Assembly: GCA_963657885.1 (NCBI GenBank) | Contig: CAVKNZ010000001.1 | Span: 55,203 to 119,202, forward strand | Reading direction: 5' to 3' | DNA from: Bacteroidaceae bacterium | Lineage (GTDB): Bacteria > Bacillota_I > Bacilli_A > RFN20 > CAG-826 | Length of the DNA: 64,000 bases | Part shown: in pieces, positions 31,208 through 62,634 of the stretch | How the letters are laid out: the number at the start of each line of letters is the position of its first letter | Position numbering within the stretch: position 1 is the first letter of the stretch | Position numbers and translations under genes: made by a program | Notes under the pieces: model-generated | The model's database searches: none | What the model was told of the DNA's origin: nothing | What the model saw: only the letters and a program-made list of their open reading frames with translations

Positions 31208-31209
31208 AT

Positions 31210-34218: not shown

Positions 34219-34219
34219 T

Positions 34220-36142
34220 ATGAAGAATTATTTAAAATTTCCTATTTTAATTGCATCTGTGTTAACTACTTTTAATGCATTATCTCTTGTTAACAGCAAT
34301 AGCAAAGATGCATATAGAACAGATGCATTAAGTTATAAGACACTTCAAACAATTGAAAACAAAGCAGTTATTGAATTTGAAAATGAAAATCATAATTTGC
34401 CTGAAGGTGAATCTGCGAGTGTTTCTTATAGTGGATCAGCAGTAAGTTATAAAAATAATGGACAATACACTAATGCACGTATATTTGCGGCGCGATTTTA
34501 TACTGGAAACTATTCATGCTCCCCTATAAACGAGGAAGAAAAAACAGTATTTTTAAATGGCGAAGAAAGAACTAGAACCGTTAATACTACCGGAGGATAC
34601 GTACTCTATTTTAATGGAGGCTCTAATTCTAAAGTTTCTGTGACTTATTCATCGTCAGAAGAGAGATATGCTGATTTATATGTTCGCGTATCTACTAACA
34701 AAACTTCAAATGTCACTGCTGGTGCCCCGGCTTCGTATTCTTTATCTTTAAAAAATATGATGACAATAAATCTCAATGATGAAGATTTAACTATTAATGA
34801 TAAAGCTACAGTTTTTGGGCGAAAATATCAGGATCATTCGCTTGATGATGAATTAGGATCTAAAAATGGCACGGCTGATAATTTCGCTTTAGAAAAGGGC
34901 GCCGATGGTAATTGGGATACAAAGAACACTGTTTTAAACATGTATGGTCGTTATATACCTCAAGATTGGCAAACTGTATTAGTTGGAAAAGTTTTAATAA
35001 AAAAAGGCAATAATTCGTTTGTCTATTCCGCTATAAATGGCGATTACAGCGGTCAACTTGATTGCATGATTTTAGATTATGATAAATACGACAATAAAGA
35101 TGTTTATGAATTCGAAAACGCAGACGATTTAGGAAACGCTAAGAAAATCGCTAGTTATTCCGATGGCAAAAATGATGCTTTAATTCAAGATTTCGCAACT
35201 TACAACAAAGATTATGCATGCTCAAATCATGACTTTGTTAAATATTCTTACAATGGCAACACAATAACCTTTAATAATGTTAAAAAGAATAATTTTACCA
35301 ACCCTCATTTGGTAATGAGAGTTTCTTCATTGCTTGTAAATCAAGGAACTTATGTAACTACTAGCGTTCAACCAAGTAAATATTTAGAAATCAAAATTAA
35401 TGATAACGCCATAACAATCGATGATAGTTTATATATCGAAGGTCGTAATGACTCTGCAAATAAAGATCCAGATGGTATTTCCCACGGCATACAAGGATCA
35501 TTAAATTGGAGCGATTATTATGATTCTGGTAGGGGACCTCGTTATTTATATTTGATATGGAGAACAATTGATTTTGGTCCTATCACTTTAAATGGTGACG
35601 TTGATGGCGTGGGCTCAAATAAGTTTGAATTTACGACCATTAATGGAGCGGCCAATACTGAATACATTGGCTTTGACTATTTCTCTATTGTAGATGTTGA
35701 AGATGATCGTTACGCTGCAACAGCATTTGCTAATACATATGTCGGTTTATTTGCAAATACATGCAAGCCAGATGGCAACACAAATGTTTCTACATTAAAG
35801 ACAGTTTGGACATCTATGAGAAGCGACTACAATAATTTAACTACTGCATCTCAAACCATTATTTTAAATAGCTCAGCAAGTAGCGTCTCTCTTGATCCTA
35901 TCGAAAGATTATTGGAACGTTATGACTATATCGGTGGTAAATATAACACTCAACTTGTCGATGATGGAAACTGGAACTTCTTTGGACGTACTGTAAGTGC
36001 AACAAGTTCATATCCATTGCCATATATGTCGATGACAAATAACAACTATCTCTTGTTATTGATAATTATTATTGGATCAACGCTATCTATAACTGCGTTT
36101 ATTGTTATCTATAAAAAAAGTAAATATAAAAGACAAAAATAA
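34220..36142 (+). CDS. Secreted, C-terminally membrane-anchored surface protein of unknown function (possible glycan-binding beta-sandwich protein)
   Basis: 640 aa. Signal peptide MKNYLKFPILIASVLTTFNALSLVNS. S/T/N-rich body. C-terminal TM plus basic tail LLLLIIIIGSTLSITAFIVIYKKSKYKRQK. Translationally coupled to neighbours. Confidence 0.4.
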   Translation: MKNYLKFPILIASVLTTFNALSLVNSNSKDAYRTDALSYKTLQTIENKAVIEFENENHNLPEGESASVSYSGSAVSYKNNGQYTNARIFAARFYTGNYSCSPINEEEKTVFLNGEERTRTVNTTGGYVLYFNGGSNSKVSVTYSSSEERYADLYVRVSTNKTSNVTAGAPASYSLSLKNMMTINLNDEDLTINDKATVFGRKYQDHSLDDELGSKNGTADNFALEKGADGNWDTKNTVLNMYGRYIPQDWQTVLVGKVLIKKGNNSFVYSAINGDYSGQLDCMILDYDKYDNKDVYEFENADDLGNAKKIASYSDGKNDALIQDFATYNKDYACSNHDFVKYSYNGNTITFNNVKKNNFTNPHLVMRVSSLLVNQGTYVTTSVQPSKYLEIKINDNAITIDDSLYIEGRNDSANKDPDGISHGIQGSLNWSDYYDSGRGPRYLYLIWRTIDFGPITLNGDVDGVGSNKFEFTTINGAANTEYIGFDYFSIVDVEDDRYAATAFANTYVGLFANTCKPDGNTNVSTLKTVWTSMRSDYNNLTTASQTIILNSSASSVSLDPIERLLERYDYIGGKYNTQLVDDGNWNFFGRTVSATSSYPLPYMSMTNNNYLLLLIIIIGSTLSITAFIVIYKKSKYKRQK

Positions 36143-37180: not shown

Positions 37181-39621
37181 AACATAAAGAAATAGTTGAT
37201 TCACTAACATTAGAAGAGAAAGCTAGTTTAACAACTGGCAAAAACTTTTGGGAATCAAAAGATATTTTAGAAAAAGGCATTCCTTCTTTATTTTTCTCTG
37301 ATGGACCGCATGGTATTAGAAAGCAAGCCGCGGCCGCTGATCACTTAGGATTAAACGAATCACTTAAGGCAACATGCTTTCCGCCGGCCGCGACGATGGC
37401 CTCTTCTTGGGATATTTCATTAGGCGAAGTAATGGGTAAGGCCTTAGCTCAAGAAGCACTGGCTCAAAAAGTTAATGTTTTGTTAGGACCAGGACTAAAT
37501 ATAAAAAGAAATCCTCGATGTGGACGTAACTTTGAATATTTTAGCGAAGATCCTTGTCTTTCTGGCAAGATGGCTGCCTCTTACGTAAAAGGCATTCAGA
37601 GTTTAGGCATCTCTGCTTGCTTAAAACATTTTGCTTGCAATAACCAAGAAGAAAAAAGAATGACTATAGATACGATTGTCGATGAAAGAGCGTTAAGAGA
37701 AATATATTTAACTGGATTTGAGATAGCCATTAAAGAATCTCATCCAAGAACAATTATGTCTTCTTACAATATGCTTAACGGAGTTCACACGAATGAAAAT
37801 CCTCATCTTATGAAGATTCTTCGCGATGAATGGCAATATGAAGGCGTTCTTGTTACCGATTGGGGCGGAGAAAACGATAGAGTTAAAGGTTTTAATTTAG
37901 GTAACGAAATAGAGATGCCTGGTTCAGGGAAAGATGGTGTCAACGAAATTGTCAATGCTTATAAGGAAGGAAAAATAAGTAAAGAAGTTTTAGATAACAA
38001 CACTGATAGATTGCTTGACTTAATAATTGAGACCTCTAAGCCGTTTAAAGGTGAAAAGAGTTATTCTCCAGAATATGAAGAACATCATAAGCTCGCCATT
38101 AGATGCGCGGAAGAATCAATGGTACTTCTTAAAAATGAAAATAACATCTTACCTCTTAAGAGCGAAACTAAAGTTTGCCTATTAGGTGATTTCGCAGGTA
38201 GAATGCGTTATCAAGGCGCGGGAAGCTCGGTAGTTAACGCTTATAAGTTAGAAACTCCTTTAGAAGTAATTAAGGATTATAACTTAGATTTTATAGGCTA
38301 TGAAAAAGCCTTTCACCGCTTCGGTAGAAAAAGTAAAAAACTCTTAAATAAAGCAGTTAATTTAGCTAAAAAGGCTGACGTTGCTCTTGTATATTTGGGC
38401 CTAGATGAAGCGATAGAAGCCGAAGGATTAGATCGAAATAATATCAAAATTAATGAAAATCAAATTATCTTATTAAAGGCTTTGAAAAAAGAAGGCATAA
38501 AAGTAGTTAGTATTCTTCATGCTGGAAGTGTTGTGGAAATGGGCTGGGCAGATGATTGCGATGCCTTATTAAATGCTTATTTACCTGGACAAGGTGGCGC
38601 ACGCGCTGAACTCAACATCCTTTGTGGCTTAGTCAATCCTAGTGGCAAATTAGCGGAAACCTATCCTTTTAGCTATGAAGACACTCCGACGCATAAATAT
38701 TTCCCGGGAAAAGAGGTAAACACTCAATATCGCGACTCCATTTTTGTTGGATATCGGTACTTCTCTACTATTGGCAAGAAAGTTCGTTTTCCTTTTGGTT
38801 ATGGGCTTTCTTATAGCAATTTCTCTTACAACAGTTTAAACATTACTCCTAAAGGTGTTTCTTTTAAAATCAAAAATATCTCTAATGTTGATGGCAAAGA
38901 AATTGCCCAACTATATATTTCCAAAAAAGAATCAACTGTTTTTAGAGTGAAGATAGAATTGAAAGGCTTTATTAAGGTTTTCCTTAAAGCCGGTGAAGAA
39001 AAAGAAGTATTTATTCCATTTGATGAATATACATTTAGATATTGGAACTTACTTCTAAATAGATGGTCAGTTGAGAAAGGCAGATATGAAATATTAGTGG
39101 CCTCCTCCTCGGAAGATATCCGCCTTTCTTCTGAATACACTATCGAAGGAGAAAATCTAGATAGAGATTCTTTTATAGTTCAAGAAGAGATACCTAACTA
39201 TTTCTTTGGAAAGATTGATGATATATCTACTGATGAATTTGAAAAAATATATCTTTCTAAAGTTCCTTCAGAAAAATACTCTTTTATTAAAAAGAATCGT
39301 TTAGTTGTTCATTACAATACGACGATAAATGAACTTAAATATGCAAAAGGCTTTGCTGGTAGAGCCTTCTCTGCGCTTATTAAATTTGCTATTAAGTTCC
39401 TTCGCATTTTTGGTGATTACAAAACTTCAAACACTCTAATAATGGGTGTATTGCACGCCCCTATGAGAAGTTTAGCGAAGATGACTGGTGGAGCAATAAC
39501 AACTAAACAGTTAGACGGACTAATTATGATGTTTAATGGTCACTTCTTTAAAGGACTTCATTACTTTAATAAAAATAAAGAACGTAAAACGAAAAAAGGG
39601 AAGAAAAATGGAAGAGATTGA
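37165..39621 (+). CDS. Glycoside hydrolase family 3 beta-glucosidase/beta-hexosaminidase, canonical domain order, cytoplasmic (no signal peptide)
   Basis: 818 aa. N-terminal catalytic domain with GVLVTDWGG (nucleophile Asp). C-domain with LGLDEAIEAEGLDR. Fn3-like FGYGLSYSNFSY. Extra basic C-terminal tail of about 120 aa. Alternative start ATG at 37177. Confidence 0.9.
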   Translation: MERLMKHKEIVDSLTLEEKASLTTGKNFWESKDILEKGIPSLFFSDGPHGIRKQAAAADHLGLNESLKATCFPPAATMASSWDISLGEVMGKALAQEALAQKVNVLLGPGLNIKRNPRCGRNFEYFSEDPCLSGKMAASYVKGIQSLGISACLKHFACNNQEEKRMTIDTIVDERALREIYLTGFEIAIKESHPRTIMSSYNMLNGVHTNENPHLMKILRDEWQYEGVLVTDWGGENDRVKGFNLGNEIEMPGSGKDGVNEIVNAYKEGKISKEVLDNNTDRLLDLIIETSKPFKGEKSYSPEYEEHHKLAIRCAEESMVLLKNENNILPLKSETKVCLLGDFAGRMRYQGAGSSVVNAYKLETPLEVIKDYNLDFIGYEKAFHRFGRKSKKLLNKAVNLAKKADVALVYLGLDEAIEAEGLDRNNIKINENQIILLKALKKEGIKVVSILHAGSVVEMGWADDCDALLNAYLPGQGGARAELNILCGLVNPSGKLAETYPFSYEDTPTHKYFPGKEVNTQYRDSIFVGYRYFSTIGKKVRFPFGYGLSYSNFSYNSLNITPKGVSFKIKNISNVDGKEIAQLYISKKESTVFRVKIELKGFIKVFLKAGEEKEVFIPFDEYTFRYWNLLLNRWSVEKGRYEILVASSSEDIRLSSEYTIEGENLDRDSFIVQEEIPNYFFGKIDDISTDEFEKIYLSKVPSEKYSFIKKNRLVVHYNTTINELKYAKGFAGRAFSALIKFAIKFLRIFGDYKTSNTLIMGVLHAPMRSLAKMTGGAITTKQLDGLIMMFNGHFFKGLHYFNKNKERKTKKGKKNGRD

Positions 39622-40648
39622 AATTAAACCTTATTCAAATAATAAGCTTGTTGCATTAGTTCAGCGAATTGCTCGTTGGTGGCTTGCTCATTGGTATTCT
39701 TTTAGCGATAAACATCCAAAATTTGCCAGTCTTTTATATAAAATAAGCTTCTTTTTCATCTTTTCAATGGCGGTTACTTTATGGCAATTTCTCATCATGG
39801 TTTTCTTGCCATATGCCTTTGAAGGTATTTGGAATGTACCATTTTGTTTTCCACGTATTTCATTAGGACTTAAAGATGCTTTAGGTAATGATTTATATTT
39901 TGGGATTTTTAATGAGCCTGCGCAGGTGATGGTTGGCAACACTTTATCGCAAGCTTATACATCTAACGATGTCGATGTTTTATTAGCTCAAGGAGGAGTT
40001 GTTAAAGTTGGCGGACTTGGTAATTTCATTGCTTTTGAAATTGCTGTTTTTACCGCCCAATGCATTAACTTTCCGCTTCAAAGAAACATCACTTATAAAT
40101 CTAAAGGCAACCCTTATTTTCAAGCCTTTATGTATTTTGTCGGGTGGATCTTTGTTTCTTTATTCACTAATGCCTTATGGGGAATAGCTAATCCATTATT
40201 ATTATCTTGGCAAGTAAATGATGTCGTCATCGGTTTATTAAAGACTGTTCTTACCGGCGGTGTATCCATGTTTATTTTCTTCTTTATCTTTTTGCTTATT
40301 TTCCCCGACTTAAATAAAAGTGCGGAGAAAGCAGCGAAAAGATATAAAAAAGCCGAAAATAAAAATGCTGATGAAAAGAAGAAAGCTGAGCTATTTAAAA
40401 AGATGGTGGATGCGACTAATAAAGCTAAGATTGAAAATGCTCGTTTGAAGGCTATTCAATGCGAATCGCTATATAATGGAAAAGCAATTTCTTATCATTC
40501 TTATTTAGAAAAAGCGAAGAATCCAAAGCTTGCTGATGAAGAAGTAAATGAATTAAATGATATTGTTTCCAAGAAATATGAAGAAGCTATTAAAGCTAAA
40601 GAGAATATGCTTTTAGCAAAAAGCGAATATGAAAGAATTAAAAGATAA
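39608..40648 (+). CDS. Hypothetical membrane protein (about 5 TM) with a K/E-rich C-terminal coiled-coil tail
   Basis: Start taken as ATG 39608 (MEEIEIKPYS), overlapping the GH3 stop by 14 nt; the ORF track gives 39536. Hydrophobic core. The last 100 aa, KAAKRYKKAENKNADEKKKAELFKKMVD..., are predicted coiled-coil. Confidence 0.45.
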   Translation: MEEIEIKPYSNNKLVALVQRIARWWLAHWYSFSDKHPKFASLLYKISFFFIFSMAVTLWQFLIMVFLPYAFEGIWNVPFCFPRISLGLKDALGNDLYFGIFNEPAQVMVGNTLSQAYTSNDVDVLLAQGGVVKVGGLGNFIAFEIAVFTAQCINFPLQRNITYKSKGNPYFQAFMYFVGWIFVSLFTNALWGIANPLLLSWQVNDVVIGLLKTVLTGGVSMFIFFFIFLLIFPDLNKSAEKAAKRYKKAENKNADEKKKAELFKKMVDATNKAKIENARLKAIQCESLYNGKAISYHSYLEKAKNPKLADEEVNELNDIVSKKYEEAIKAKENMLLAKSEYERIKR

Positions 40649-41765
40649 TAAATATGATTTCTTAATTGTTGGGGCGGGGCTATTTGGCTCAACTGTCGCT
40701 AATAGACTAACTAGTTTAGGAAAAAAAGTTTTAGTAATTGATAAAAATCCCTTTGTTGGAGGAAATATTTATACTGAACAAATCGAAGGAATTCATGTTC
40801 ATAAATTCGGCGCGCACATTTTTCATACGTCTAATAAAAAAATATGGGATTATGTGAATTCATTTATGGACTTTATTCCTTTTGTTAATTCACCAATTGC
40901 TAATTATAAAGGCGAATTATACAACCTTCCTTTCAATATGAATACGTTCATAAAGATATTTCCTGAAGCTAAATCAATAGATGAAGTTAAGCAATGCATT
41001 GAGCAAGAAAAAAAGAAAGCAAACATAACATCTATCAATAATTTAGAAGATCAAGCCATTTCAATGGTGGGAACTTCTATTTATGAAATATTAATTAAAG
41101 GCTATACCGAAAAGCAATGGGGAAAATCAGCGAAAGATTTGCCTGTATCTATCATTAAAAGAATCCCTTTAAGATTCACATTTGATAACAATTATTTTAA
41201 TGATACTTATCAAGGAATACCGAAAGATGGTTATACAAACTTTATCAAAGCTTTACTTAATGGAAGTGATGTTAAACTTAATGCGAATTTCTTTAAAAAT
41301 GAAGACGAGTATTTAAAGATTGCTAATAATGTTATCTATAGTGGAAGGATTGATGAATTCTTTGATTATAAATTTGGAAAACTAGAATATCGAAGTGTTG
41401 ATTTTAAAACCAGTGTTCTTGATAGAGAAGTTTTTCAAGGTGTCGCGGTGATGAATTTCACTGATAGAGAAACTCCATATACACGCATTATTGAGCACAA
41501 GTTTTTTGATCGCTTTAACAATTCAAAAAAGACAGTTATATCTTATGAATATCCTTCATTAGATAATGAAAATAATAATCCATGTTATCCATTAAATGAT
41601 AAAAAGAACAATGATATTTATTCGCTTTATTTAGCTGAATCTAAAAAGCTTAAAAATGTTTACTTCGGAGGAAGATTAGCATTATATAAATATTTTGATA
41701 TGGATGATGTCATTGAAGAAGCTTTTAAACTTATAGACGAACTAATAAAAAGCAAAGTAGTTTGA
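40629..41765 (+). CDS. glf: UDP-galactopyranose mutase (flavoenzyme; galactofuranose precursor)
   Basis: 378 aa. YDFLIVGAGLFGSTVANRL FAD motif. GGNIYTE ... HVHKFGAHIFHT ... YSGRIDEFFDYKFGKLEYRS are conserved Glf signatures. Confidence 0.9.
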   Translation: MKELKDNKYDFLIVGAGLFGSTVANRLTSLGKKVLVIDKNPFVGGNIYTEQIEGIHVHKFGAHIFHTSNKKIWDYVNSFMDFIPFVNSPIANYKGELYNLPFNMNTFIKIFPEAKSIDEVKQCIEQEKKKANITSINNLEDQAISMVGTSIYEILIKGYTEKQWGKSAKDLPVSIIKRIPLRFTFDNNYFNDTYQGIPKDGYTNFIKALLNGSDVKLNANFFKNEDEYLKIANNVIYSGRIDEFFDYKFGKLEYRSVDFKTSVLDREVFQGVAVMNFTDRETPYTRIIEHKFFDRFNNSKKTVISYEYPSLDNENNNPCYPLNDKKNNDIYSLYLAESKKLKNVYFGGRLALYKYFDMDDVIEEAFKLIDELIKSKVV

Positions 41766-41968: not shown

Positions 41969-43393
41969 ATGGCCTTACCAACAAATATAAATACAATTCT
42001 AAACCCTAATATTGTCGAAAGCGTTCGCATTGAACTTAAAGAAGGCTTCAACGTTGAAAGTATTATGCATACAATATGTGCTTTCGCTAACGATATCGAT
42101 AATTTTTGTGGCGGTTACATCATCATCGGAATTAGCGATAAAAATGAAGTAATTGGTTTTCCTCGAGATAAATTTGATAGTTTACAAAAAGAAGTATTTA
42201 GATATTCAAAAAAATGCATAGAGCCATCATATGTTCCTCAAATTGAATTAGTTAACTATGACGATAAAGATGTCGTTGTTATTTGGTGTCCTTCTGGAGA
42301 AGAGAAGGCTTATAAATGCTACGAGCATGTTTTCAAAGAAAAGAAGGAAACAAGATATCTATGCTATATTCGTAAAGGATCTTTAACAGTTGTTGCTTCT
42401 AGAGAAGAAGAAAAAGAATTATATAATCTTGCTAGTTATACTCCTTTTGATGATCGCGTAAATTATAAATACGATTTAACTGTCATTAATCGAAATATTT
42501 TAAAAGACTATTTGATGGAAACTCAATCTCATCTATTGTCTAATTTTGATAATCAAAGCACTGAAGATTTGCTTTTAGATTTAAGAGTTATTGGAGGCCC
42601 TAAGGAGGATTATCGTCCAAAAAATATCGCTTTATTGATGTTTACTGATAAGCCTTCAAATTTTATTCCCTATTCTTATATAGAATTAACGATTTTAAAA
42701 GATAAAGAAGGGGACGAAATCATTGAAAAAACTTTTGATTCTCCCTTATACAAACAATATATCGATTGCATGGATTATATCAAAAATAAAATCATTGAAA
42801 AAAAGACAATTAAGGTCGAAGGAGATTTTAAATCGACTGTTGTTTATAACTACTCTTATGAAGTGCTTGAAGAAGTTATCGCCAATGCGATTTTGCATAA
42901 GTCATATCAAATAAATGAGCCAGTTTCTGTAAGAGTGGAATCGGACAAGATTGAAATCACCAATGTTCCGGGCTTTGATAGAACGATAAGCGACTCTTCT
43001 ATTCAAGAACTTAAACCTAAATCAAAACGCTACACCTCTCGTCGAATTGCTGAATTCTTAAAAGAATTAGGCATTGTCGAAGCTAAAAATACTGGTTATC
43101 CGCGCATCGTAAAACGAAGCAAAGAAAATGGCTCCCCCTTACCTATCATAGAAATGAATAAAGAACGTGATTATGTCACAGTTATCATTCCTATACATAA
43201 AGCTTTCTTAAACGAAAATTTATCATTACGGGACCGTATTATTGACTATTTAAATGAAAAAGATATGAGCAAGACTGAACTTGCTAATGCGCTTGGCTAT
43301 CCGCGAGTTACAAATTCTTTGACGTATCAGTTAAATAAGTTAATTGATGAAAAGAAGGTTGCTGTTCATAATCGAAAATATTATCTTTGTTAA
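41969..43393 (+). CDS. AlbA_2 (Schlafen-like, 'divergent AAA/AAA-4') domain protein with HATPase_c_4 domain and C-terminal winged HTH; putative transcriptional regulator / 'ATP-binding protein'
   Basis: 474 aa. N-terminal ESVRIELKEGFNVESIMHTICAFANDIDNFCGGYIIIGISDKNEVIGF (AlbA_2). Central EEVIANAILHKSYQINEPVSVRVESDKIEITNVPGF (HATPase_c_4-like). C-terminal HTH (MSKTELANALGYPRVTNSLTYQLNKLIDEKKV). Confidence 0.7.
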   Translation: MALPTNINTILNPNIVESVRIELKEGFNVESIMHTICAFANDIDNFCGGYIIIGISDKNEVIGFPRDKFDSLQKEVFRYSKKCIEPSYVPQIELVNYDDKDVVVIWCPSGEEKAYKCYEHVFKEKKETRYLCYIRKGSLTVVASREEEKELYNLASYTPFDDRVNYKYDLTVINRNILKDYLMETQSHLLSNFDNQSTEDLLLDLRVIGGPKEDYRPKNIALLMFTDKPSNFIPYSYIELTILKDKEGDEIIEKTFDSPLYKQYIDCMDYIKNKIIEKKTIKVEGDFKSTVVYNYSYEVLEEVIANAILHKSYQINEPVSVRVESDKIEITNVPGFDRTISDSSIQELKPKSKRYTSRRIAEFLKELGIVEAKNTGYPRIVKRSKENGSPLPIIEMNKERDYVTVIIPIHKAFLNENLSLRDRIIDYLNEKDMSKTELANALGYPRVTNSLTYQLNKLIDEKKVAVHNRKYYLC

Positions 43394-43403
43394 TCTTAAT
43401 TAG

Positions 43404-45611
43404 TTAATTAAAATACAATAACGTATCTCGATGCAGTAGATATTCGCTTTGTTCAAACAGTGAATAGTTTATCTTTATATCAGTTGCTGAATCATATATT
43501 TCTTTTGTTGGATACAATGCTTTTATTTGACTGATAGTTTTTATGTTGTTGTCTTTATCTTTTAGTTCAGTTGTTTCACTTATAAGAGTATGAGTTTCAA
43601 CAGTTAATATGCCTAAGAAAGACGAATCATTTTTCAATGCATTTAAATCTGAATATGAATAATAACTTAAAGCGGGTTTACTAGAGAAAAGCATCAAAGT
43701 GAAATTTGATTTTGATAGGCGATAGCTAACTTGGATGCTATTTGGTTCGCCATTTTCTAAATCAATATAGAAAAGTAATTCATAACGGTTTGCTTCATTA
43801 ACAGTTAGTTTCTTGTTACTAGAATCAGCTTTTATAGAAATTGGTTTATCATCACCTATTGGATAAACTTGGTTGTCGTTATTTATAACTCCATTTCCGT
43901 TTGCGATTTGATTATTTAGAAAATCAATTAACGTTGATTCCATCGGAGTGAAGGTAAACGAAACTGTTGATGAGGTGACAAACTTAGAATATAAAAGCGA
44001 TAAAGTTTCGTCTTCTTCTAAAGAGGTATCGCGAGTGAAATAAAATGTTTTAGATTCTGTTACTGTTACAAAATTATGCCTATAGATGATTGATTCTGAG
44101 GCATCTTCATATTTATCTAATGAACCGCTTAAATGGGTGCCGGCTAAGCGATATTCATATTGTTTTCTAATGCCGATAACATAGACAAGAGGATAGCCGT
44201 TAATTGTGGCGTAGCCATATTCATCTGCGGTGTTTTTAGAGCCTATTACTTTTATATATTTATTTGTCGCATTAAAGGAGTTGACGGCATTTGTGACATT
44301 TGTTGTAGCTATAGTTTTATCATAGTCATCATGCGCGTGAGCAAAATATAGATCAAAGCCATAATAGCCTTCCTCTAATGACAAGTTCTTTATCGCTTGA
44401 TTGTCTAACAAGCTAGTCCAATTGCCTGACCAAGAGCCATTATAGTCTAAAGGGTCAACATCCAATTGGATTGAGAACGTTTCATCACTACTTATATAAA
44501 CGTTATTTGTGAAATAGTTTATCCCTCCAACAGTGTTATTACTTGTTTGTTCTAAAGGGATTGTATATCTATTTGGATAAGAAATTTCATCGTCTTGCTT
44601 CTTATTATAATTAGTTCCTGGATTAACTCTAAATTTCATAAAGGAGGTATACATATTATTAATAAGTTGAGGCTTTCCGCTGTTTTTCGAGGCAAAAACT
44701 GGATAAAGATAGATGGTGTTATCATTTAAGCTTGATCCATCGATCGCTATAGAAGTGCTTCCGGTCGCGGTTAAGTTATCAACATAAGATAGTGACGTTG
44801 AAGAAGTTATAACTTGATCGGTGGTGACATCTTGTACGCCGTAATCGCCAATTTTATAAGGCGTTCCGCTTATCGCGGCTCCGCCTTGCCCAACAAGAGT
44901 GCCACTTGTTTCTGTTTCATATTTATCCCATATGGTATAACGACTTCTTTCTTCCGCTAAAGCTTTATCATAGGTCCAACCGATAAATTCTGGACCAAAG
45001 CCAAGATAGTCTTTATATACTGATTGAGCAATTATTTTTGATAATTTTGAGATAGGGATGTTGTTTTCAGCTTCTATCATCACGTATTTGCTAGTTTCAA
45101 CGATATTTAACTCTTCATTAGGAAGAATATAACCTGTCCATCTTCTTTTTGGATGACGTTTTATAAGTTCAGTATCGTTATTATTAAAACTTAAATTCGC
45201 ACCTGTTGAAGATTCTACCGATAGATAATAATAAGATACATCTGTCCATGGATATTGAGGATTGTAGGTGACATTGCTAAAATCAGCTCCGCTTTCATTA
45301 GAATGTCTTAAGCAATAAGGCTCTTCGCTATTGTAGGGATTATCAACGTGCTCTGCGATTTCTAATGGATCAGTGACTGTGCTTCCATCTTCTTTTATTA
45401 ATTCTGAACCTGTTGAATAATATGGTGAAGCAAAGAAATAGACGCGGAAGACATTACTTTTATCGACGCTATTAAGATGGGCGTTTTGCCCATATGTATC
45501 GATATTTTCTTTCTTCACCTCTTTTTCAGGAAAAACAAACAAAGAAAAAGCTACTGATGGAACAGTTAGTAATAGTAGTGATGCTAATGTTAACAGTATG
45601 TATTTCTTCAT
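43404..45611 (-). CDS. Large secreted/surface protein of unknown function, carrying the shared N-terminal motif; last gene of the SipW-like operon
   Basis: 735 aa. N-terminus MKKYILLTLASLLLLTVPSVAFSLFVFPEKEVKKEN shares the F[AS]x[FW]VF...E[VI]K..N motif with the two upstream paralogous N-termini. S/T/N/Y-rich, consistent with a beta-rich extracellular protein. Confidence 0.5.
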   Translation of the reverse strand: MKKYILLTLASLLLLTVPSVAFSLFVFPEKEVKKENIDTYGQNAHLNSVDKSNVFRVYFFASPYYSTGSELIKEDGSTVTDPLEIAEHVDNPYNSEEPYCLRHSNESGADFSNVTYNPQYPWTDVSYYYLSVESSTGANLSFNNNDTELIKRHPKRRWTGYILPNEELNIVETSKYVMIEAENNIPISKLSKIIAQSVYKDYLGFGPEFIGWTYDKALAEERSRYTIWDKYETETSGTLVGQGGAAISGTPYKIGDYGVQDVTTDQVITSSTSLSYVDNLTATGSTSIAIDGSSLNDNTIYLYPVFASKNSGKPQLINNMYTSFMKFRVNPGTNYNKKQDDEISYPNRYTIPLEQTSNNTVGGINYFTNNVYISSDETFSIQLDVDPLDYNGSWSGNWTSLLDNQAIKNLSLEEGYYGFDLYFAHAHDDYDKTIATTNVTNAVNSFNATNKYIKVIGSKNTADEYGYATINGYPLVYVIGIRKQYEYRLAGTHLSGSLDKYEDASESIIYRHNFVTVTESKTFYFTRDTSLEEDETLSLLYSKFVTSSTVSFTFTPMESTLIDFLNNQIANGNGVINNDNQVYPIGDDKPISIKADSSNKKLTVNEANRYELLFYIDLENGEPNSIQVSYRLSKSNFTLMLFSSKPALSYYSYSDLNALKNDSSFLGILTVETHTLISETTELKDKDNNIKTISQIKALYPTKEIYDSATDIKINYSLFEQSEYLLHRDTLLYFN

Positions 45612-45615
45612 TTAT

Positions 45616-46383
45616 TTATACCTTTGCTAGGAAAAAGGAAATATCGATAGATGAGTTATTGATAGCCTCGATGTTACTTTTCATCTTCTCATTTAGCATC
45701 TTTTCTGAATGGAAATATGAAGGAGAAAAGGAGCCAGAATAATTCCTGGAGTTATATACTCCGTTAAATCGAGAATATTTAAAATCGATGGAAAAATGGT
45801 GATAGCTGACTAATTGTCCTCCTAATGGAGTGAATTCTAAAATCTTATTTGTGTAGACAATGTTATTTACGTTATCGACTTTTTCGATAAATGATGATGA
45901 TGAATCAGTGTCCAAGTTAGTTACTTGTTTAGGCGAGATTATATCTAAAATTGATGATGATTTAGGATAAGGAATCTCTTCTCCAGCAATTGGAATGAGA
46001 TTTACCCCGCGAGTATCACTATCTTTTAAAGTTAATTGTAAGTAAATCGCAAGCGGACCATTTTCATACATTGTAGGAGAAGTATATTCGATGATGAAAT
46101 TTCTTTTCTTTGTTGGATTATCGCTTCTAGCTAAATCGATGCTTTCATAACCAAGCTCCAAATGCGTTTTTAAACTTGTCTCCTCTATTTCATCTTTATA
46201 TGTTCCATTATCTAAATAGACAAGGCGCATTTCTCCATAGTCTTGGTTCTTTTCGATTTCTATATTGACTATATTGTTTGCCTTAACTTCTGTGTTTTTA
46301 AAAACAAATATCGCAAAACCACTTCCAATAAGAAGGACAGGAACAAGCAAGAAGTATAACGTTAACAAGATTTTCTTTCTCAT
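45616..46383 (-). CDS. Secreted protein of unknown function with the shared IGSGFAIFVF N-terminal motif
   Basis: 255 aa. N-terminus MRKKILLTLYFLLVPVLLIGSGFAIFVFKNTEVKANN. 4-nt start/stop overlap with the upstream signal peptidase gene. Confidence 0.5.
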   Translation of the reverse strand: MRKKILLTLYFLLVPVLLIGSGFAIFVFKNTEVKANNIVNIEIEKNQDYGEMRLVYLDNGTYKDEIEETSLKTHLELGYESIDLARSDNPTKKRNFIIEYTSPTMYENGPLAIYLQLTLKDSDTRGVNLIPIAGEEIPYPKSSSILDIISPKQVTNLDTDSSSSFIEKVDNVNNIVYTNKILEFTPLGGQLVSYHHFSIDFKYSRFNGVYNSRNYSGSFSPSYFHSEKMLNEKMKSNIEAINNSSIDISFFLAKV

Positions 46384-47357
46384 TTTTCTTTACCATCTTC
46401 TTCTTGAGCTATAACCTCTTTTTGCTCTATACATATCGCTTCGATATCTTTTTCTAAGATGAGCATGAAGCGGTGGTTATATGGTTTATTTAGTCGATCT
46501 AATAAGAAGGAATATAAGCCCATCATCACGAAAGCGACAAAGACAATGATGATGCCAATGTTAGACTGCATATAAGAGATGAAGTAGCCAAAGGCTAGAT
46601 TCTTTTCACCATGAAAGTGTTCGCTTTGATGGACCCCAACAATCAAATCTTTTTTAACTTTGATTTCGCCAGTTAATGATGATGAGTTTGCGTCACCTCT
46701 AAAGGTGTATAACGGTTCATTGTTTTCATCATATTCAACGTATATAAGTCGATGTACAATAGTGACATAGTTTCCTCCGTTGCTATCTTTTTGCATCTTA
46801 AAGGCGACGACATCAAATGGTTTGATGTTATTAATATATTCTTCTTTGTTGCTTATCGAAATATAGGCAAATTGAGGAATTCTATCAGCCTCATTAGGTT
46901 TACCATTTTCATCGAGAAGATAAGTGTTACCTTTATAGGCTCTTTCCATTGAATCAGTTTGAATGACTAAGACCGCCTTATCGCCTAACCACATCTGATC
47001 GCCACTAGCCTTGATGGATAAAGAGACGCCAATCATGATGGTAAAGTAGACAAATAACAAGGCGATGAGGCCATCACTGACTATTGAAATGATTCTATTT
47101 GTTCTTTTATTAGCCTTTATTTCTTTATCGATATCTACAAATGATGTCGATTTATTTTTCTTGAGTCTTTTATAGATATATTTTGATGCACTTTCTCGAA
47201 TTAGCTCATCATCAAGACCATATTCTAATGATCGTTTTTTCTCATGGAAGAAAAAGGCCGCGAGGATTATAAACGCGGCGCTGAAGAGGATAATTACCAA
47301 TATTGCGATTAGCAGTATATAAAGATTGATACCGCTAGATCTGATGAAATAGTCCAT
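46380..47357 (-). CDS. ER/archaeal-type signal peptidase I (S26B, SipW-like; Ser/His dyad) with two extra N-terminal TM helices and a C-terminal TM
   Basis: 325 aa. Box B LVIQTDSMERAY (compare SGSMEP). Box C FDVVAF (compare GDIVVF). Box D TIVHRLIYV (His, not the Lys of S26A). Box E FRGDANSS (compare KGDNN). C-terminal TM IGIIIVFVAFVMMGLYSFLL, as in SipW. Confidence 0.6.
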   Translation of the reverse strand: MDYFIRSSGINLYILLIAILVIILFSAAFIILAAFFFHEKKRSLEYGLDDELIRESASKYIYKRLKKNKSTSFVDIDKEIKANKRTNRIISIVSDGLIALLFVYFTIMIGVSLSIKASGDQMWLGDKAVLVIQTDSMERAYKGNTYLLDENGKPNEADRIPQFAYISISNKEEYINNIKPFDVVAFKMQKDSNGGNYVTIVHRLIYVEYDENNEPLYTFRGDANSSSLTGEIKVKKDLIVGVHQSEHFHGEKNLAFGYFISYMQSNIGIIIVFVAFVMMGLYSFLLDRLNKPYNHRFMLILEKDIEAICIEQKEVIAQEEDGKEK

Positions 47358-47395
47358 CTAGCTACCTCCCACGCGGCACTTTTTATTTGATGCGA

Positions 47396-48016
47396 TTATT
47401 TTGACAAGACTTCAACTTTGTATTGCACAACGCGCGTAACTGCGGCTGACACGACAGTTTTTAACGCAGTGTATTCTGCCTTCTTAGTTGGTTCTTTTCC
47501 CGTTTTATAAGCAAATGTTGCACTGTTCCAATCGAATGTTTTAGCATTTTCTCCTAGAGTAAATGTATAGACACCATTTGTGTCATCATTAGCCTTTGTT
47601 GAGCCTGCATAGTTAACATCGACATAATCATATAAATCCTTGCCGAGTGTTAACGTAACAGTCATTTGATAGTAGATTTTATCATTATCATGATCGATTG
47701 CATCAGGATCAGTTGTTTCCCTTTCCTTATACACAGTTGTTTCTTTTGCTCCAAGTTCTAAATAAATACCTTTGGCTTCAGCAGTGCTTGTAATTCCTAA
47801 TTCAGCCCTTTTAGCTGCGGTTTGATCAAAGACAATACTAAATTCGTCAGCAACTTGCTCAAACTCGCCAACATCAGCAAGCTTTGTTATCTTTGCAGAC
47901 AAGTTTTTTGTTTCAGTAATCTGCGTTCCGGAAAATACCCAAATTGAAAAACCTGATCCAATGACGGCGACTCCCGCCATAAGTGGTAATAAGCTTTTTA
48001 TTAAAGTTCTTTTCAT
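47396..48016 (-). CDS. Small secreted protein (206 aa), possible TasA-like matrix/fibre subunit; first gene of the SipW-like operon
   Basis: N-terminus MKRTLIKSLLPLMAGVAVIGSGFSIWVFSGTQITETKNLSAKI. Compare the B. subtilis TasA N-terminus LVGGGTWAAFNDIKS...ASGTLDLSAKEN. Strong SD (AAGGAGG) upstream. Confidence 0.45.
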   Translation of the reverse strand: MKRTLIKSLLPLMAGVAVIGSGFSIWVFSGTQITETKNLSAKITKLADVGEFEQVADEFSIVFDQTAAKRAELGITSTAEAKGIYLELGAKETTVYKERETTDPDAIDHDNDKIYYQMTVTLTLGKDLYDYVDVNYAGSTKANDDTNGVYTFTLGENAKTFDWNSATFAYKTGKEPTKKAEYTALKTVVSAAVTRVVQYKVEVLSK

Positions 48017-48288
48017 TTTCTAAACCTCCTTGTTTCGCTTAGTGCTCTTTTGTTTATTAAAAAAAGAAAAATCAGTCAACTATTTTGAGCTTCTATATTA
48101 ATGAAAGTCGTTTATTATCGAACTTTTTTCGCATAATTGATAGAAAAATTATGAGTCGATTTTTAGCTAAAAATATGAGCGAAAAAGACGCGATATTTAC
48201 TCATAAAACAACATTTATAAAAATAAAGAATATAATAAATGAGCAAATCATTTTGTATTAGATATTGATTTGCATTATCGTTATAGCC

Positions 48289-50291: not shown

Positions 50292-51665
50292 TTATTTTTT
50301 GAAATAAATATCATCGCCGTCAAAGCGGTATTTCATTTTGATTTTGTCGGTCAAAAAACCATTTATTGAGGCAAAACCAAAGCCTTTTATATCAATTTCT
50401 TTAATTGCTTTTATTTTTGCAATTTCTTCTTTTATTAGTTCATCATCTAATTTGTTTTGTAGATATTTAACTTCGATAATGTCATAGCCATTCTCTTTCT
50501 TTATAGCTATATCGAATTCTCCGTTTTTCTTATTTATTGCATCATCGTAATAGTAAGAGCCAACATTATAGATTCCTTTTAATGTTCTATTTTTAATTAA
50601 AAATGAAATGTATTGCTTCACAATATTTTCAAATCTAAAGGAGATGAATGTATTGATGCTTTTTTCGATGTAGGTTTCATAAAAAACTTCTTTCCCTAAA
50701 AGGTTAATAATGTTTTCTTTTCCATAAATATAAGTATAGTAAAATCTTAGAACATTATTTGATAGAGAATAAGATATTTTTTTATTGTCGTTTATTCGAT
50801 TTATTGGAACATTTTCTTCGATGAATTCCATTTCGAATAGATTGTTTAATTGCTTGCTTAATAAGCCGTTTTGCTTATAATGCAGTTCATTTTCTAATTG
50901 TCGATATTTGATTTTCCCGTTTCCTATTATTTTGAATATAGTTTCATAATTAAGTTTACTAGAAAGATCGCTTGTATAATTTTGACTTGCATAGTTATAG
51001 ACGGAACTTAAATTATTTAAAAGTGTCATGCATATATTTTCTTTTAGAGTTTTGCTTTCATCTAATTGAGCTAAGATGTATGGTGAACCGCCAAACACTG
51101 AATAAAAGGCAACCTTATCGTAATTAGATAAGTGAGGATAAAATTCACTCGCAGATAGATAATCGAATTCTTTCAAATTGATGATAGTTTTAAATCGTCC
51201 ATACATTGGATTCTTATCTTTTATTAAAGTTTTCATCATGCCGATGTTTGAGCCAGAAAGGATGATATTTAGATTTTTTGTATAATTAGCTAATAAATTT
51301 TGAAAAAGTGAATCTAGTTCATCCCCATTATTTCTTACATATAGATAAGGGAATTCATCTAAGGCAATCACGATGTGTTTATTTAATGTGTTCAAATAAT
51401 TAAATAAAGAAAAGAGCGAATCAAAGCTGATGTTTGATGGGACGATATTATATTGAGACAACAATTTAGCTAATTCATCTATGTTATCTTTCAATGTTGA
51501 TTTTAAGCATTCAAAATGAACAAATGTTAAACCTGATTGCTTTAATGCTTCATCGATTAATAGGCTTTTACCAACGCGACGATTTCCATAGATTAAAACA
51601 TGATTAGAAGGCTCATTTAGAGTATTTTTAATTGCTTGAATTTCTTCTTTTCTTCCGATGAACAT
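50292..51665 (-). CDS. AAA+ 'archaeal-type' ATPase (Arch_ATPase, PF01637-like) with C-terminal DUF234; 'ATP-binding protein'
   Basis: 457 aa. FIGRKEEIQAIKNTL...HVLIYGNRRVGKSLLIDE (Walker A) ... IVIALDEFPYL (Walker B). The C-terminal 120 aa (GEFDIAIKKENGYDIIEVKY) look DUF234-like. Confidence 0.7.
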   Translation of the reverse strand: MFIGRKEEIQAIKNTLNEPSNHVLIYGNRRVGKSLLIDEALKQSGLTFVHFECLKSTLKDNIDELAKLLSQYNIVPSNISFDSLFSLFNYLNTLNKHIVIALDEFPYLYVRNNGDELDSLFQNLLANYTKNLNIILSGSNIGMMKTLIKDKNPMYGRFKTIINLKEFDYLSASEFYPHLSNYDKVAFYSVFGGSPYILAQLDESKTLKENICMTLLNNLSSVYNYASQNYTSDLSSKLNYETIFKIIGNGKIKYRQLENELHYKQNGLLSKQLNNLFEMEFIEENVPINRINDNKKISYSLSNNVLRFYYTYIYGKENIINLLGKEVFYETYIEKSINTFISFRFENIVKQYISFLIKNRTLKGIYNVGSYYYDDAINKKNGEFDIAIKKENGYDIIEVKYLQNKLDDELIKEEIAKIKAIKEIDIKGFGFASINGFLTDKIKMKYRFDGDDIYFKK

Positions 51666-59497: not shown

Positions 59498-59521
59498 ATA
59501 TTAATTAAATGTAAAACGATA

Positions 59522-59563
59522 AAATGTCGCTTTATTTGTCGCTTTAAATGTCGCTTTATTTTT
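59522..59563. repeat. 42-bp element: three 12-bp-period tandem TGTCGCTTTA units. Direct-repeat copy A, abutting the stop of the AlbA_2 gene
   Basis: AAATGTCGCTTTATTTGTCGCTTTAAATGTCGCTTTATTTTT. Identical copy at 60957-61000 on the other side of the gene. Confidence 0.75.
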
Positions 59564-60911: not shown

Positions 60912-60956
60912 ATTAAACTGTTCTCTCCTGCATTTATTATAGCGCGATGAAAAGAA

Positions 60957-61000
60957 AAATGTCGCTTTATTTGTCGCTTTAAATGTCGCTTTATTTTTTC
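60957..61000. repeat. Direct-repeat copy B of the 3x TGTCGCTTTA element, about 45 bp upstream of the AlbA_2 gene start (its promoter region)
   Basis: AAATGTCGCTTTATTTGTCGCTTTAAATGTCGCTTTATTTTT, identical to 59522-59563 in the same orientation. Confidence 0.75.
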
Positions 61001-61080
61001 CTTTTCTCTATCTCGTTAAAAACAGTAGACATCTAATGCTATCAGTGTGGTTTGTTTACAGTCTTCTTTCAATCAGATTA

Positions 61081-62436: not shown

Positions 62437-62490
62437 TTAGCGAACCCTTTCTGAAAGTATTAGTTTTCTACTTAAAATATAAGAAAAACG

Positions 62491-62607: not shown

Positions 62608-62634
62608 AATTTTAAGATAAAAGTTTTTTAACTT

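Follow-up and report, generated by a model that had tools for sequence, protein, structure and literature searches.

The minus strand of the 64-kb window (the whole stretch of DNA analysed here) carries a cassette of four open reading frames that encode proteins of 206, 325, 255 and 735 amino acids (Table 1), at the coordinates given by the first-pass annotation, an earlier reading of this DNA. The 325-aa product is a signal-peptidase homologue, and the other three are referred to as cargo A, cargo B and cargo C. The four genes form a compact, operon-like cassette. The peptidase and cargo B genes share 4 nt (ATGA), where the start codon of the latter overlaps the stop codon of the former, a 4-nt gap separates the cargo B gene from the cargo C gene, and genes on the opposite strand flank the cassette on both sides. 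The N-terminus of cargo A is conserved in its homologues, which backs the annotated start; a public gene call makes this protein too short, at 194 aa. None of the four proteins is matched by a Pfam or NCBIfam model. Related loci (n = 47) all come from uncultured gut Bacilli or 'Mollicutes' MAGs, and the host genomes are small (~1.06-1.17 Mb).

Table 1. Features of the cassette, with positions in the window. The arrow marks the predicted scissile bond.
Feature	Position	Strand	Basis
AAGGAGG ribosome-binding site, 8 nt upstream of cargo A ATG	48025..48031	-	read from sequence
Cargo A (206 aa), leading gene of the cassette	47396..48016	-	ORF, ribosome-binding site, conserved start
Cargo A cleavage-region motif, I19-G-S-G-F-S↓I-W-V-F28	47933..47962	-	conserved in homologues
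S26B-like signal-peptidase homologue, 325 aa, membrane-bound	46380..47357	-	ORF, model, profiles
TM1, residues ~3-40, extra helix relative to SipW/Sec11	47238..47351	-	hydropathy, AF2 helices
TM2, residues ~88-118, counterpart of the S26B N-terminal anchor	47004..47096	-	hydropathy, AF2 helices
Catalytic domain, residues 119-256	46590..47003	-	boxes B-E
TM3, residues ~258-289, SipW-style C-terminal anchor	46491..46586	-	hydropathy, AF2 helices
Cargo B, 255 aa	45616..46383	-	ORF
Cargo B cleavage-region motif, I19-G-S-G-F-A↓I-F-V-F28	46300..46329	-	sequence, homologue counts
Cargo C, 735 aa, large, acidic, secreted	43404..45611	-	ORF
Cargo C degenerate cleavage-region motif, P18-S-V-A-F-S↓L-F-V-F27	45531..45560	-	sequence, orthologue comparison

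The predicted peptidase has three hydrophobic segments. Its parts follow in the order TM1, K/R-rich cytoplasmic helices, TM2, a putatively extracytoplasmic catalytic domain, TM3 and a cytoplasmic tail. Hydropathy and AF2 helices put the K/R-rich loops on the membrane side opposite the catalytic domain, and it is from the positive-inside rule that the catalytic domain would face away from the cytoplasm. The first-pass annotation had described a SipW-style C-terminal TM helix, which stands, together with two extra N-terminal TM helices, which are really one extra TM helix and a cytoplasmic helix. After TM1 comes a putatively cytoplasmic, invariant G-[LI]-[ED]-D motif (D50), F29 is invariant too (36 homologues), and the cytoplasmic helix after TM3 has an invariant R296. 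All four catalytic boxes named in the first-pass annotation are present: box B is T134-x-S136-M-E (DSME), box C is DVVAF, box D is V-H202-R-L-I (VHRLI) and box E is R-G-D222-A-N (RGDAN). Between boxes B and C lies an insertion of ~20 aa in which N144 and Y146 are invariant.

Residues T134, S136, M137, H202, R203, G221, D222, N224, S227 and E231 are invariant in the 36 peptidase homologues, and Lys is invariant at no position. Because Ser, His and Asp are invariant and Lys is nowhere so, the 325-aa protein is an S26B-like (Ser136/His202/Asp222) signal-peptidase homologue and not a Ser/Lys enzyme. This assignment, already made at first pass from the boxes, is borne out by the AlphaFold model, which shows the S24/S26 (LexA/signal peptidase) catalytic fold, and by profile matches to human SEC11A/C. 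The three best matches of the catalytic-domain profile to PDB sequences are SEC11C/A (E 4e-4 to 7e-4); the SEC11 matches are modest (E ~1e-3 to 1e-4) and span boxes C-E only. The hmmsearch alignment pairs ivHRLI with IVHRVI/IVHRVL and rGDaN with KGDNN of SEC11C/A. A comparison by hhalign with SEC11A (91% probability) pairs S136/H202/D222 with S56/H96/D116; it used a SEC11A sequence that is approximate in part, its N-terminal region included, and the alignment of box B rests on it. The curated models to which the first-pass annotation had looked for recognition of the enzyme stayed silent. In Pfam and NCBIfam, neither Peptidase_S24/S26 nor TIGR02228 matched the window protein at E<=1, and nor did any other peptidase model. 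The Pfam peptidase models matched 0/36 members of the family, and none of the 58 peptidase homologues has a precomputed Pfam domain.

The cargo proteins begin with an n-region and an h-region of ~13 residues, followed ~20-23 residues from the protein start by the motif [VI]-G-[ST]-G-[FY]-[SA]↓x-[WF]-x-F. The cleavage sites of A, B and C are predictions, and the predicted removed length is 23-26 residues. Among the positions that the search pattern did not constrain, V/I occupies P6 in 65/70 cases and G occupies P5 in 62/70; P2' is W in 49/70 and F in 20/70, an aromatic residue having been demanded there by the pattern itself. The G-x-[SA] stretch also meets the ordinary -3/-1 rule, and a general peptidase could in principle cut there. 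A scan of the window together with 660 kb of related loci, covering the 614 ORFs that are 90 aa or longer, found the motif in 76 ORFs, of which 75 are same-strand neighbours of the peptidase gene. Seen from the other side, the peptidase gene adjoins one to three motif-bearing genes in 45 of the 47 related loci, in keeping with the conservation in orthologues that the first-pass annotation had anticipated. The sharing of the motif is far beyond chance. Cassette gene order is permuted in several loci, so that the order held to mirror tapA-sipW-tasA is not a fixed one, and the flanking genes differ between genomes. Single MAGs can carry two separate cassettes (L039/L053, L037/L051, L027/L052), with each peptidase paralogue beside its own cargo. 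An additional conserved gene, such as a sortase gene, was not seen in the cassettes of the related loci. The remaining secreted proteins and lipoproteins of the window lack the motif and have ordinary signal peptides or lipoboxes.

The genomic linkage supports the view that the peptidase is genetically dedicated to the neighbouring secreted proteins that share the motif. It makes it improbable that the 325-aa protein instead serves these Bacilli, with their small genomes, as general type I signal peptidase and is co-transcribed with neighbours that are ordinary Sec substrates: adjacency holds in 45/47 loci despite permuted order and unrelated flanks, single MAGs have two paralogous peptidase genes each by its own cargo, the motif is confined to cassette neighbours, and the remaining exported proteins of the window have ordinary export signals. 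A housekeeping role would fit the small genomes and the suitability of G-x-S/A for the usual -3/-1 rule. The 660 kb of related loci showed no LepB-type gene, but as they amount to only ~1% of each genome this absence says nothing.

Cargo A is likely the major secreted subunit. In 62 homologues G20, F23, S24, W26 and F28 of its motif are invariant and G22 is nearly so; the predicted signal peptide comprises residues 1-24, with cleavage at GFS24↓I25W. Cargo B has a predicted signal peptide of the same residues, with cleavage at GFA24↓I25F. The first-pass annotation had given all three cargo proteins the motif IGSGF[SA]I[WF]VF, which is indeed common to the 206-aa and 255-aa proteins but degenerate in the 735-aa protein (PSVAFSLFVF), whose orthologues show SAFAYF, SGFAFY, TAFSLWYF and similar motifs. 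A second element, [TE][VI]K..N, fits the 255-aa and 735-aa proteins and fails in the 206-aa protein, and the positions concerned (P5'-P14') vary among homologues. A perceived echo of SGTLDLSAK in the 206-aa protein shrinks to a 4-residue match, LSAK, in an unconserved column.

The 104 homologues of cargo A have no Pfam domain. In its AF2 model (pLDDT 81.7 overall, >90 in the body and low in residues 1-40), the mature body folds as a beta-sandwich that includes two helices, and residues 25-45 are unpacked in the monomer. Structure comparison found neither a TasA-like structure nor any other close solved structure, and the fold resembles no known fibre subunit. Cargoes A and B resemble each other only in the first ~30 mature residues (hhalign E 8.5e-5). 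In divergent loci the proteins at the B position group with the cargo A family, and A-type genes are duplicated in some loci. Cargo C has neither a C-terminal anchor nor an LPXTG signal, and its homologues in other loci bear CBM77, Big_2 or InlB B-repeat modules. LPXTG signals and C-terminal anchors are absent from all 76 cargo ORFs.

We consider it probable that the locus is a self-contained secretion and processing cassette, in which a dedicated S26B-like peptidase cleaves its cognate cargo and the subunits then assemble. Sec would export cargoes A, B and C by way of their ordinary n- and h-regions. The c-region and early mature region, with the motif described above, are unusual, and the co-encoded peptidase with its three TM helices would cleave there, most likely after the small residue 24 (P3 = G, P1 = S/A). 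In TasA, it is the aromatic residues at P2 and P2' that render the protein a poor LepB-type substrate and dependent on SipW. This would account for the presence of a dedicated enzyme alongside its substrates. Cleavage would expose a conserved aromatic N-terminus followed by ~25 residues common to A and B, and this segment may mediate non-covalent assembly, for example by donor-strand insertion. Cargo A would be the major subunit, cargo B a paralogous minor subunit and cargo C a large distal or adhesive component, and together they would form a fibre or matrix at the cell surface for gut attachment. We infer the scissile bond, the dependence on the peptidase, polymerisation and these roles; hints of assembly are that residues 25-45 of cargo A are unpacked, A and B share only their early mature part, A-type genes are duplicated in some loci, homologues of C bear the modules named above and anchors are lacking.

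Of similarly small probability as a housekeeping role is an arrangement in which the hydrophobic N-termini of A, B and C stay in the membrane uncleaved, with the G-S-G-F-S-x-W-x-F belt at the interface, and the peptidase-like protein serves as a chaperone or assembly platform in the manner of SipA/LepA. The invariance of Ser/His/Asp in 36/36 aligned homologues speaks for catalysis, neither a sortase gene nor an LPXTG signal occurs in the cassette, and an h-region of ~13 residues with the motif at a fixed position (20-23) is typical of cleaved signal peptides. Streptococcus pyogenes SipA lacks catalytic residues and works with a sortase and LPXTG pilins. The present family keeps its invariant Ser/His/Asp and has no such partner, and it does not fit the SipA/LepA-type sortase-pilus homologues, given these intact residues, LPXTG signals in 0/76 cargo ORFs and the absence of any sortase among the genes seen. 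SipA/LepA itself is described in the title of PDB 4N31 as a signal-peptidase homologue essential for pilus polymerisation.

Cleavage in the cassette would resemble that of Bacillus TasA. TasA is cut at VGGGTWA↓AF and depends on the ER-type SipW, and none of 143 verified LepB substrates has an aromatic P2' (PMC10269814). At the predicted scissile bond, a Gly-rich stretch, an aromatic P2, a small P1 and an aromatic P2' would recur here in a different pattern (VGSGFS↓xWxF). The likening of the motif to the SipW site in the first-pass annotation holds as regards this logic, in which P2 and P2' are aromatic and P3 and P1 small. As in tapA-sipW-tasA, the gene of an S26B-type (Ser/His) peptidase is embedded among presumed substrate genes, the peptidase has a C-terminal TM helix as SipW does, and the cargo is without a sortase signal. 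SipW lacks the additional N-terminal TM helix, the cytoplasmic helix and the ~20-aa insertion between boxes B and C that set the present peptidase apart, and the latter is undetected by Pfam and NCBIfam models. The motif is one residue shorter than that of TasA between G-x-G and the aromatic residue. The SipW-cognate model TIGR04088, also brought into play at first pass, matched 0/10 cargo N-termini (window and diverse loci) even at E<=10, nor did it match the full-length proteins. There is a third, very large cargo, and the hosts are uncultured gut Bacilli with ~1 Mb genomes. The cargoes are not homologues of TasA or TapA by sequence or predicted fold. As candidates for TasA/camelysin (PF12389, Peptidase_M73), cargoes A, B and C gave no Pfam match, and their profiles found nothing among PDB sequences at E<=0.3. 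The AF2 model of cargo A is not the TasA-type jelly roll (PDB 5OF1), and the kinship of the 206-aa protein with TasA/camelysin raised in the first-pass annotation has to be given up for fold and sequence alike.

It is very improbable that the cassette is a divergent true orthologue of the tapA-sipW-tasA operon in which A and B are TasA/TapA homologues past sequence recognition, for all that small secreted proteins surround an S26B-type peptidase gene in both, the cleavage-site logic is alike and locus L045 has an intermediate, TasA-like variant (VGGVYA↓TF). That the enzyme is a membrane-tethered S24-type autoprotease like LexA, cI or UmuD can practically be dismissed, since those use Ser/Lys and here the box D His is invariant and Lys nowhere is, the sequence profile matches SEC11 only, the domain lies between two TM helices opposite the K/R-rich loops, and a DNA-binding domain is absent. 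The findings point to the SipW principle in a new form, a dedicated peptidase with cognate cargo, rather than to a TasA/TapA homologue. By analogy, saying that the cassette may work like tapA-sipW-tasA is reasonable; saying that it is a TapA-SipW-TasA system is not. From the TapA-SipW-TasA-like fibre or matrix system proposed at first pass, a peptidase with cognate cargo remains and the TapA/TasA identity falls away, while the fibre or matrix is something that we infer.

To our knowledge, no accessory subunits are known for the 325-aa peptidase family, unlike the SEC11 signal peptidase complex. SEC11A/SEC11C (PDB 7P2P/7P2Q) and archaeal Sec11-type S26B enzymes have one TM helix against the three predicted here. 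They also differ in that the present family has the insertion with invariant N144 and Y146, is linked genetically to particular substrates and would not serve as a general enzyme. Firmicutes loci in which a SipW-type peptidase is encoded with secreted, polymer-forming substrates include Clostridium perfringens sipW-bsaA (BsaA matrix polymer) and Bacillus cereus sipW-tasA-calY (PMC7395162, PMC4292775, PMC11580942). Their substrates are TasA/camelysin-family proteins or isopeptide-linked polymers, to which the present cargoes are unrelated by detectable similarity. The archaeal bundling pili AbpA/AbpB (TasA-like, TapA-like) have beta-rich subunits that polymerise through an N-terminal donor strand exposed by signal-peptide removal (PMC9245690), the mechanism that may also operate here. 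AbpA is a TasA homologue cut by a generic peptidase without a dedicated gene nearby (PMC9245690), in contrast to the predicted dedicated peptidase and the subunits unlike TasA of the present cassette.

The cassette would be a TasA-operon-like arrangement built from unrelated proteins, with a previously unannotated peptidase relative, in an uncultured gut bacterium. A bolder proposal, which we regard as rather unlikely as a whole, is that it represents a new appendage class of genome-reduced, largely sortase-less gut Bacilli (RFN20/RF39-like). Subunits of a new fold would be freed by an ER-type peptidase with three TM helices, the extra TM helix and cytoplasmic motif would couple cleavage to polymerisation, and cargo C would be a carbohydrate-binding tip adhesin. 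If this were true, the peptidase would be processing enzyme and assembly platform in one, like the prepilin peptidase and the platform proteins of the type IV pilus.

An ORF listing confirmed the four cassette genes at the coordinates first claimed for them, head to tail on the minus strand: a putative peptidase gene, whose product is a membrane protein, and the adjoining genes of three secreted cargo proteins, A, B and C. The peptidase and B genes are joined by an ATGA overlap, and 4 nt separate the B stop from the C start. The sequence reads AAGGAGG upstream of A and GGGAGG upstream of the peptidase gene. The cassette is bounded on both sides by opposite-strand genes: a Schlafen/AlbA_2-HATPase_c_4 gene runs convergently towards C, and upstream of A a DUF3737 gene points the other way. 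The operon boundaries are drawn from gene orientation only, and a promoter and terminator consensus scan gave nothing exceeding the shuffled expectation. The G+C content of the window is ~33%, and an Rfam scan of its whole length gave no matches. Logan contig L001 holds an identical cassette copy in which the first gene is called 12 codons too short; the 206-aa start of A is favoured because of its ribosome binding site and an N-terminus conserved among homologues.

Genes of the cassette and their positions in the window
Gene	Position	Strand	Product
A gene	47396-48016	-	206 aa ORF
Peptidase gene (putative)	46380-47357	-	325 aa ORF
B gene	45616-46383	-	255 aa ORF
C gene	43404-45611	-	735 aa ORF

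The expected HMM match of the peptidase did not materialize: no peptidase model of Pfam or NCBIfam matched it at E ≤ 1, and scans of all four cassette proteins against both collections returned nothing relevant. Pfam placed 0/36 members of its family in any peptidase family, precomputed Pfam domains are absent from all 58 homologues found through a word index, and the NCBI label of one member is 'hypothetical protein'. The peptidase is placed in S26 by three independent lines, which include conservation and sequence profiles. In an alignment of 36 homologues, with identities down to 26%, invariant residues include T134, S136, M137, N144, Y146, H202, R203, G221, D222, N224, S227 and E231, and there is no invariant Lys. 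A PDB search with the peptidase as a single sequence returned chance matches only, and a full-length profile brought sodium channels to the top via transmembrane (TM) and low-complexity regions, with SEC11C/A ranking below them (E 0.002-0.004). After the alignment was cut back to the catalytic domain, the best three PDB sequences were SEC11C, SEC11A and a second SEC11A sequence (E 4e-4 to 7e-4). In the trimmed-profile alignment, ivHRLI corresponds to IVHRV[IL] and rGDaN to KGDNN of SEC11, and 4NV4, a bacterial 'signal peptidase I', reached only E 1.2. An hhalign comparison with human SEC11A, the N-terminal part of which was entered by hand, gave 91% probability over 106 columns. In this alignment, which includes the hand-entered part, S136/H202/D222 pair with S56/H96/D116 and an insertion of ~20 residues lies between boxes B and C; the C-terminal part of the SEC11A sequence used agrees with the trimmed-profile alignment. 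Because of the box D His, the Asp in GDxN and sequence matches to SEC11 alone, the peptidase is S26B-like (Ser/His, ER-type) and not S26A (Ser/Lys, LepB-type), as had been proposed from the sequence. That the protein is instead an S24 autoprotease is less likely.

Hydropathy and a structural model give three long helices (residues ~3-40, 88-118 and 258-289). Relative to SipW, the dedicated ER-type peptidase of the Bacillus tapA-sipW-tasA operon, this means one extra N-terminal TM helix, where two had been claimed. TM1 and TM3 are each followed by a loop rich in K/R, from which, by the positive-inside rule, we infer that the catalytic domain would face outward. SipW and Sec11 lack both the extra helix and the invariant G-[LI]-[ED]-D after it. 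This element directly follows TM1 on the predicted cytoplasmic side (residues 42-51, window 47205-47234; D50 is invariant in the homologue alignment), and F29 inside TM1 and R296 after TM3 are further invariant residues. None of the three has a counterpart in known S26B enzymes; they may point to regulation or to a partner in the cytoplasm. An exhaustive profile search put the family at 254 clusters (50% identity) at E ≤ 1e-30 and 865 at E ≤ 1e-10; the best 150 matches listed were all family members (150/150), most of them covering the whole 3-TM architecture. Many members carry long, predicted cytoplasmic extensions C-terminal to TM3, including P0007, P0009, P0012, P0016 and P0024 (~430-450 aa), P0032, P0036, P0043 and P0044 (~407-473 aa) and P0195, P0225 and P0238 (800-1012 aa). 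One extension type is K/R-rich with a repeated G-R-[FY] (…YYRD.YGRF…RPRD.YGRY…) and another is a beta-rich domain, and some members are fused to much larger proteins.

A conserved N-terminal motif marks the genes beside the peptidase gene. Among the 614 ORFs of 90 aa or longer in 660 kb of sequence, drawn from related loci together with the window, 76 match a loose pattern of the motif, and 75 of these 76 lie next to the peptidase gene and on its strand. With variants found by eye in four more loci, motif-bearing cargo lies beside the peptidase gene in 45/47 loci, the other two being truncated; conservation of the N-terminal motif in relatives is thereby established. A housekeeping peptidase is the less likely reading of the enzyme. 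A regex for LepB-type boxes over the same 660 kb found none, a result made uninformative by low genome coverage.

Residues round the predicted cleavage site (between P1 and P1') in 70 non-identical cargo N-termini
Position	Residues	Status in the search pattern
P7	I/V/L	free
P6	V/I 65/70	free
P5	G 62/70	free
P4	S/T	loosely fixed
P3	G	fixed
P2	F/Y	fixed
P1	S 35/70, A 31/70	fixed
P1'	variable	free
P2'	W 49/70, F 20/70	fixed
P4'	F 61/70	fixed

In the cargo N-termini, a basic n-region and an h-region of ~13 residues precede the motif, and the predicted signal peptide comprises 23-26 residues. The motif had been ascribed to all three cargoes. This holds for A and B, IGSGF[SA]|I[WF]VF, whereas C has the weaker SVAFS|LFVF, and its orthologues are likewise weaker (SAFAYF, SGFAFY and similar). 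A cut two residues earlier, G-S-G|F, is a possible alternative. No other ORF of the 64-kb window has the motif, and the other exported proteins encoded there have ordinary signal peptides or lipoboxes. Two further resemblances fell away on comparison with homologues: neither the positions of a second shared motif ([TE][VI]K..N) nor an 'LSAK' echo of TasA in A are conserved. That these N-termini are anchors left uncleaved, with the peptidase homologue as a SipA-like chaperone, is less likely than that they are cleaved signals.

The ER-type peptidase SipW, a dedicated enzyme, cleaves TasA at VGGGTWA|AF (PMC10269814). In TasA, Trp at P2 and Phe at P2' hinder LepB, and an aromatic P2' occurs in 0/143 verified LepB substrates (PMC10269814). 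If cut at the predicted bond, the cargo motif would follow a similar logic to this site, with a Gly-rich stretch, a small P3, an aromatic P2, a small P1 and an aromatic P2', but in a different pattern that is one residue shorter. The SipW-cognate signal model TIGR04088, which had been expected to recognize the cargo N-termini, matched none of ten even at E ≤ 10; NapE and MAG1140_fam gave weak matches only, below their cut-offs. That the cassette encodes a true TasA orthologue is less likely. A cargo beside a divergent member of the peptidase family (L045:15-650, CAVFCJ010000117.1) has the TasA-like …LTVGGVYA|TFVYA. By its sequence, this variant bridges the cargo motif and the classical SipW-cognate GGGT[WY]A|xF, and such an intermediate form suggests a continuum of cognate signals.

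Residues 4-49 of B (window 46237-46374) weakly match the N-terminus of NCBIfam NF045999, the 'MAG1140 family' of Mycoplasmopsis agalactiae, at an E of 0.0075, below the cut-off. A related N-terminal signal may thus occur on Mycoplasma proteins. If true, this would be interesting, as the missing signal peptidase I genes of some mycoplasmas are a long-standing puzzle.

The cargo bodies are without recognizable motif, as first reported: A, B, C and the homologues of A have no Pfam domain, and profiles of the three found nothing among PDB sequences. All three are acidic and nearly Cys-free. Profile-profile comparison of A with B aligns only the first ~30 mature residues (E 8.5e-5). In divergent loci, the proteins encoded at the B position group with the A family along 60% or more of their length, so A and B are probably old paralogues; hhalign found no homology of C to A or B beyond the motif. 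An AlphaFold model of A (pLDDT 81.7), built from an alignment of 62 sequences with database homologues, has a confident beta-sandwich with two helices as its body (residues ~45-206) and an unpacked segment at residues 1-40; the modelled fold has no close relative among solved structures. The large cargoes of other loci occasionally contain CBM77, Big_2 or InlB B-repeat modules, which are typical of surface adhesins. A C-type orthologue of 1032 aa (L015:3557-6655) has CBM77 at its C-terminal end (E 5e-13), and in the distant single-cargo branch Big_2 occurs in L048 and an InlB B-repeat in L046. This pattern suggests that the large cargoes are adhesins of modular build whose distal ends can be exchanged. 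An LPXTG signal or C-terminal anchor was found in 0/76 cargo ORFs.

A genome-collection scan gave 47 cassette loci, some of them on ~1 Mb chromosomes. Their hosts are uncultured gut Bacilli, 'Mollicutes' or 'Firmicutes CAG:449'-type MAGs, together with a few oddly named short contigs. Sources named Phocaeicola dorei, Bacteroidaceae, Treponema, Prevotella and Faecalibacterium (among L013, L015-L017, L020, L038, L041 and L044) are implausible, and most likely these contigs were mis-binned from the same Bacilli lineages and do not represent horizontal spread. The peptidase gene typically neighbours A-type (~180-275 aa), B-type (~190-465 aa) and C-type (~560-1140 aa) genes. A fixed, tapA-sipW-tasA-like order is contradicted by permutations in L022, L024, L028, L031 and L032/L004, and a distant branch (L046-L053) encodes, in the place of A, B and C, a single large protein or two such proteins (760-1040 aa). 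Three MAGs have two cassettes each. The flanking genes vary from genome to genome; the cassette is therefore either moved or retained as a whole.

Within the window, several genes round the cassette are ATPase-like or nucleic-acid-sensing-like (41969-43393, plus strand; 50292-51665, minus strand; 58472-63873), and Pfam confirms Schlafen AlbA_2 with HATPase_c_4 and ATPase_2 with DUF234 among them. More ORFs with Walker-A-like or AlbA_2-like N-terminal sequences lie at 58-64 kb. These genes may be defence- or mobile-element-related. Three large genes in a row (28472-36142, plus strand) encode proteins of 911, 1002 and 640 aa. The 911-aa protein starts with an apparent XRE-type helix-turn-helix (…NLSQDEFAKKLDVTRVAVSKWELGKSYPS…), the other two have hydrophobic signal-like N-terminal segments, and the 640-aa protein has no Pfam match. 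A multi-TM protein of 370 aa with a K/E-rich coiled C-terminal tail and no Pfam match (39536-40648, plus strand) is encoded by a gene that overlaps the start of a UDP-galactopyranose mutase gene (40629-41765) and is preceded by GT2 glycosyltransferase and GH3 genes; it possibly belongs to a galactofuranose-containing surface glycan locus.

The best-supported reading, which we hold with reasonable but guarded confidence, is that the cassette pairs a dedicated signal peptidase of S26B-like type with the Sec substrates cognate to it. More tentatively, and with the balance somewhat against it, the cargo released by the peptidase would use its conserved mature N-terminus to build a fibre or matrix. 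This proposal draws on the analogy with TasA and archaeal bundling pili (PMC9245690; see also PMC9674648 and PMC10151520), the unpacked conserved N-terminus, the paralogous small subunits and the adhesin-like large protein.

That an ER-type peptidase can be dedicated to a special class of signals is already known in principle. The 3-TM peptidase family undetected by Pfam/NCBIfam, the motif variant and all three cargo families appear undescribed; our literature search found no paper that connects RF39 or Mollicutes with SipW, and no mention of TIGR04088. The principle of a dedicated ER-type peptidase with an aromatic P2/P2' site now reaches past TasA-family cargo, and the motif [VI]-G-[ST]-G-[FY]-[SA]|x-[WF]-x-F offers a simple means of listing substrates. 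Because the family is invisible to Pfam and NCBIfam, annotation pipelines overlook both a signal peptidase and the substrates that go with it in a widespread group of uncultured bacteria from the guts of humans and animals. The host name Firmicutes bacterium CAG:449 is common, by name only, to family CAG-449 of order RFN20, in which srtA/B sortases are reported absent and reduced surface-protein display is therefore predicted (PMC10868615). A role of the cassette in surface display would then be plausible and, with the link to RFN20 by name only, the cassette is a concrete candidate for building surface or adhesive structures in RFN20-like organisms.
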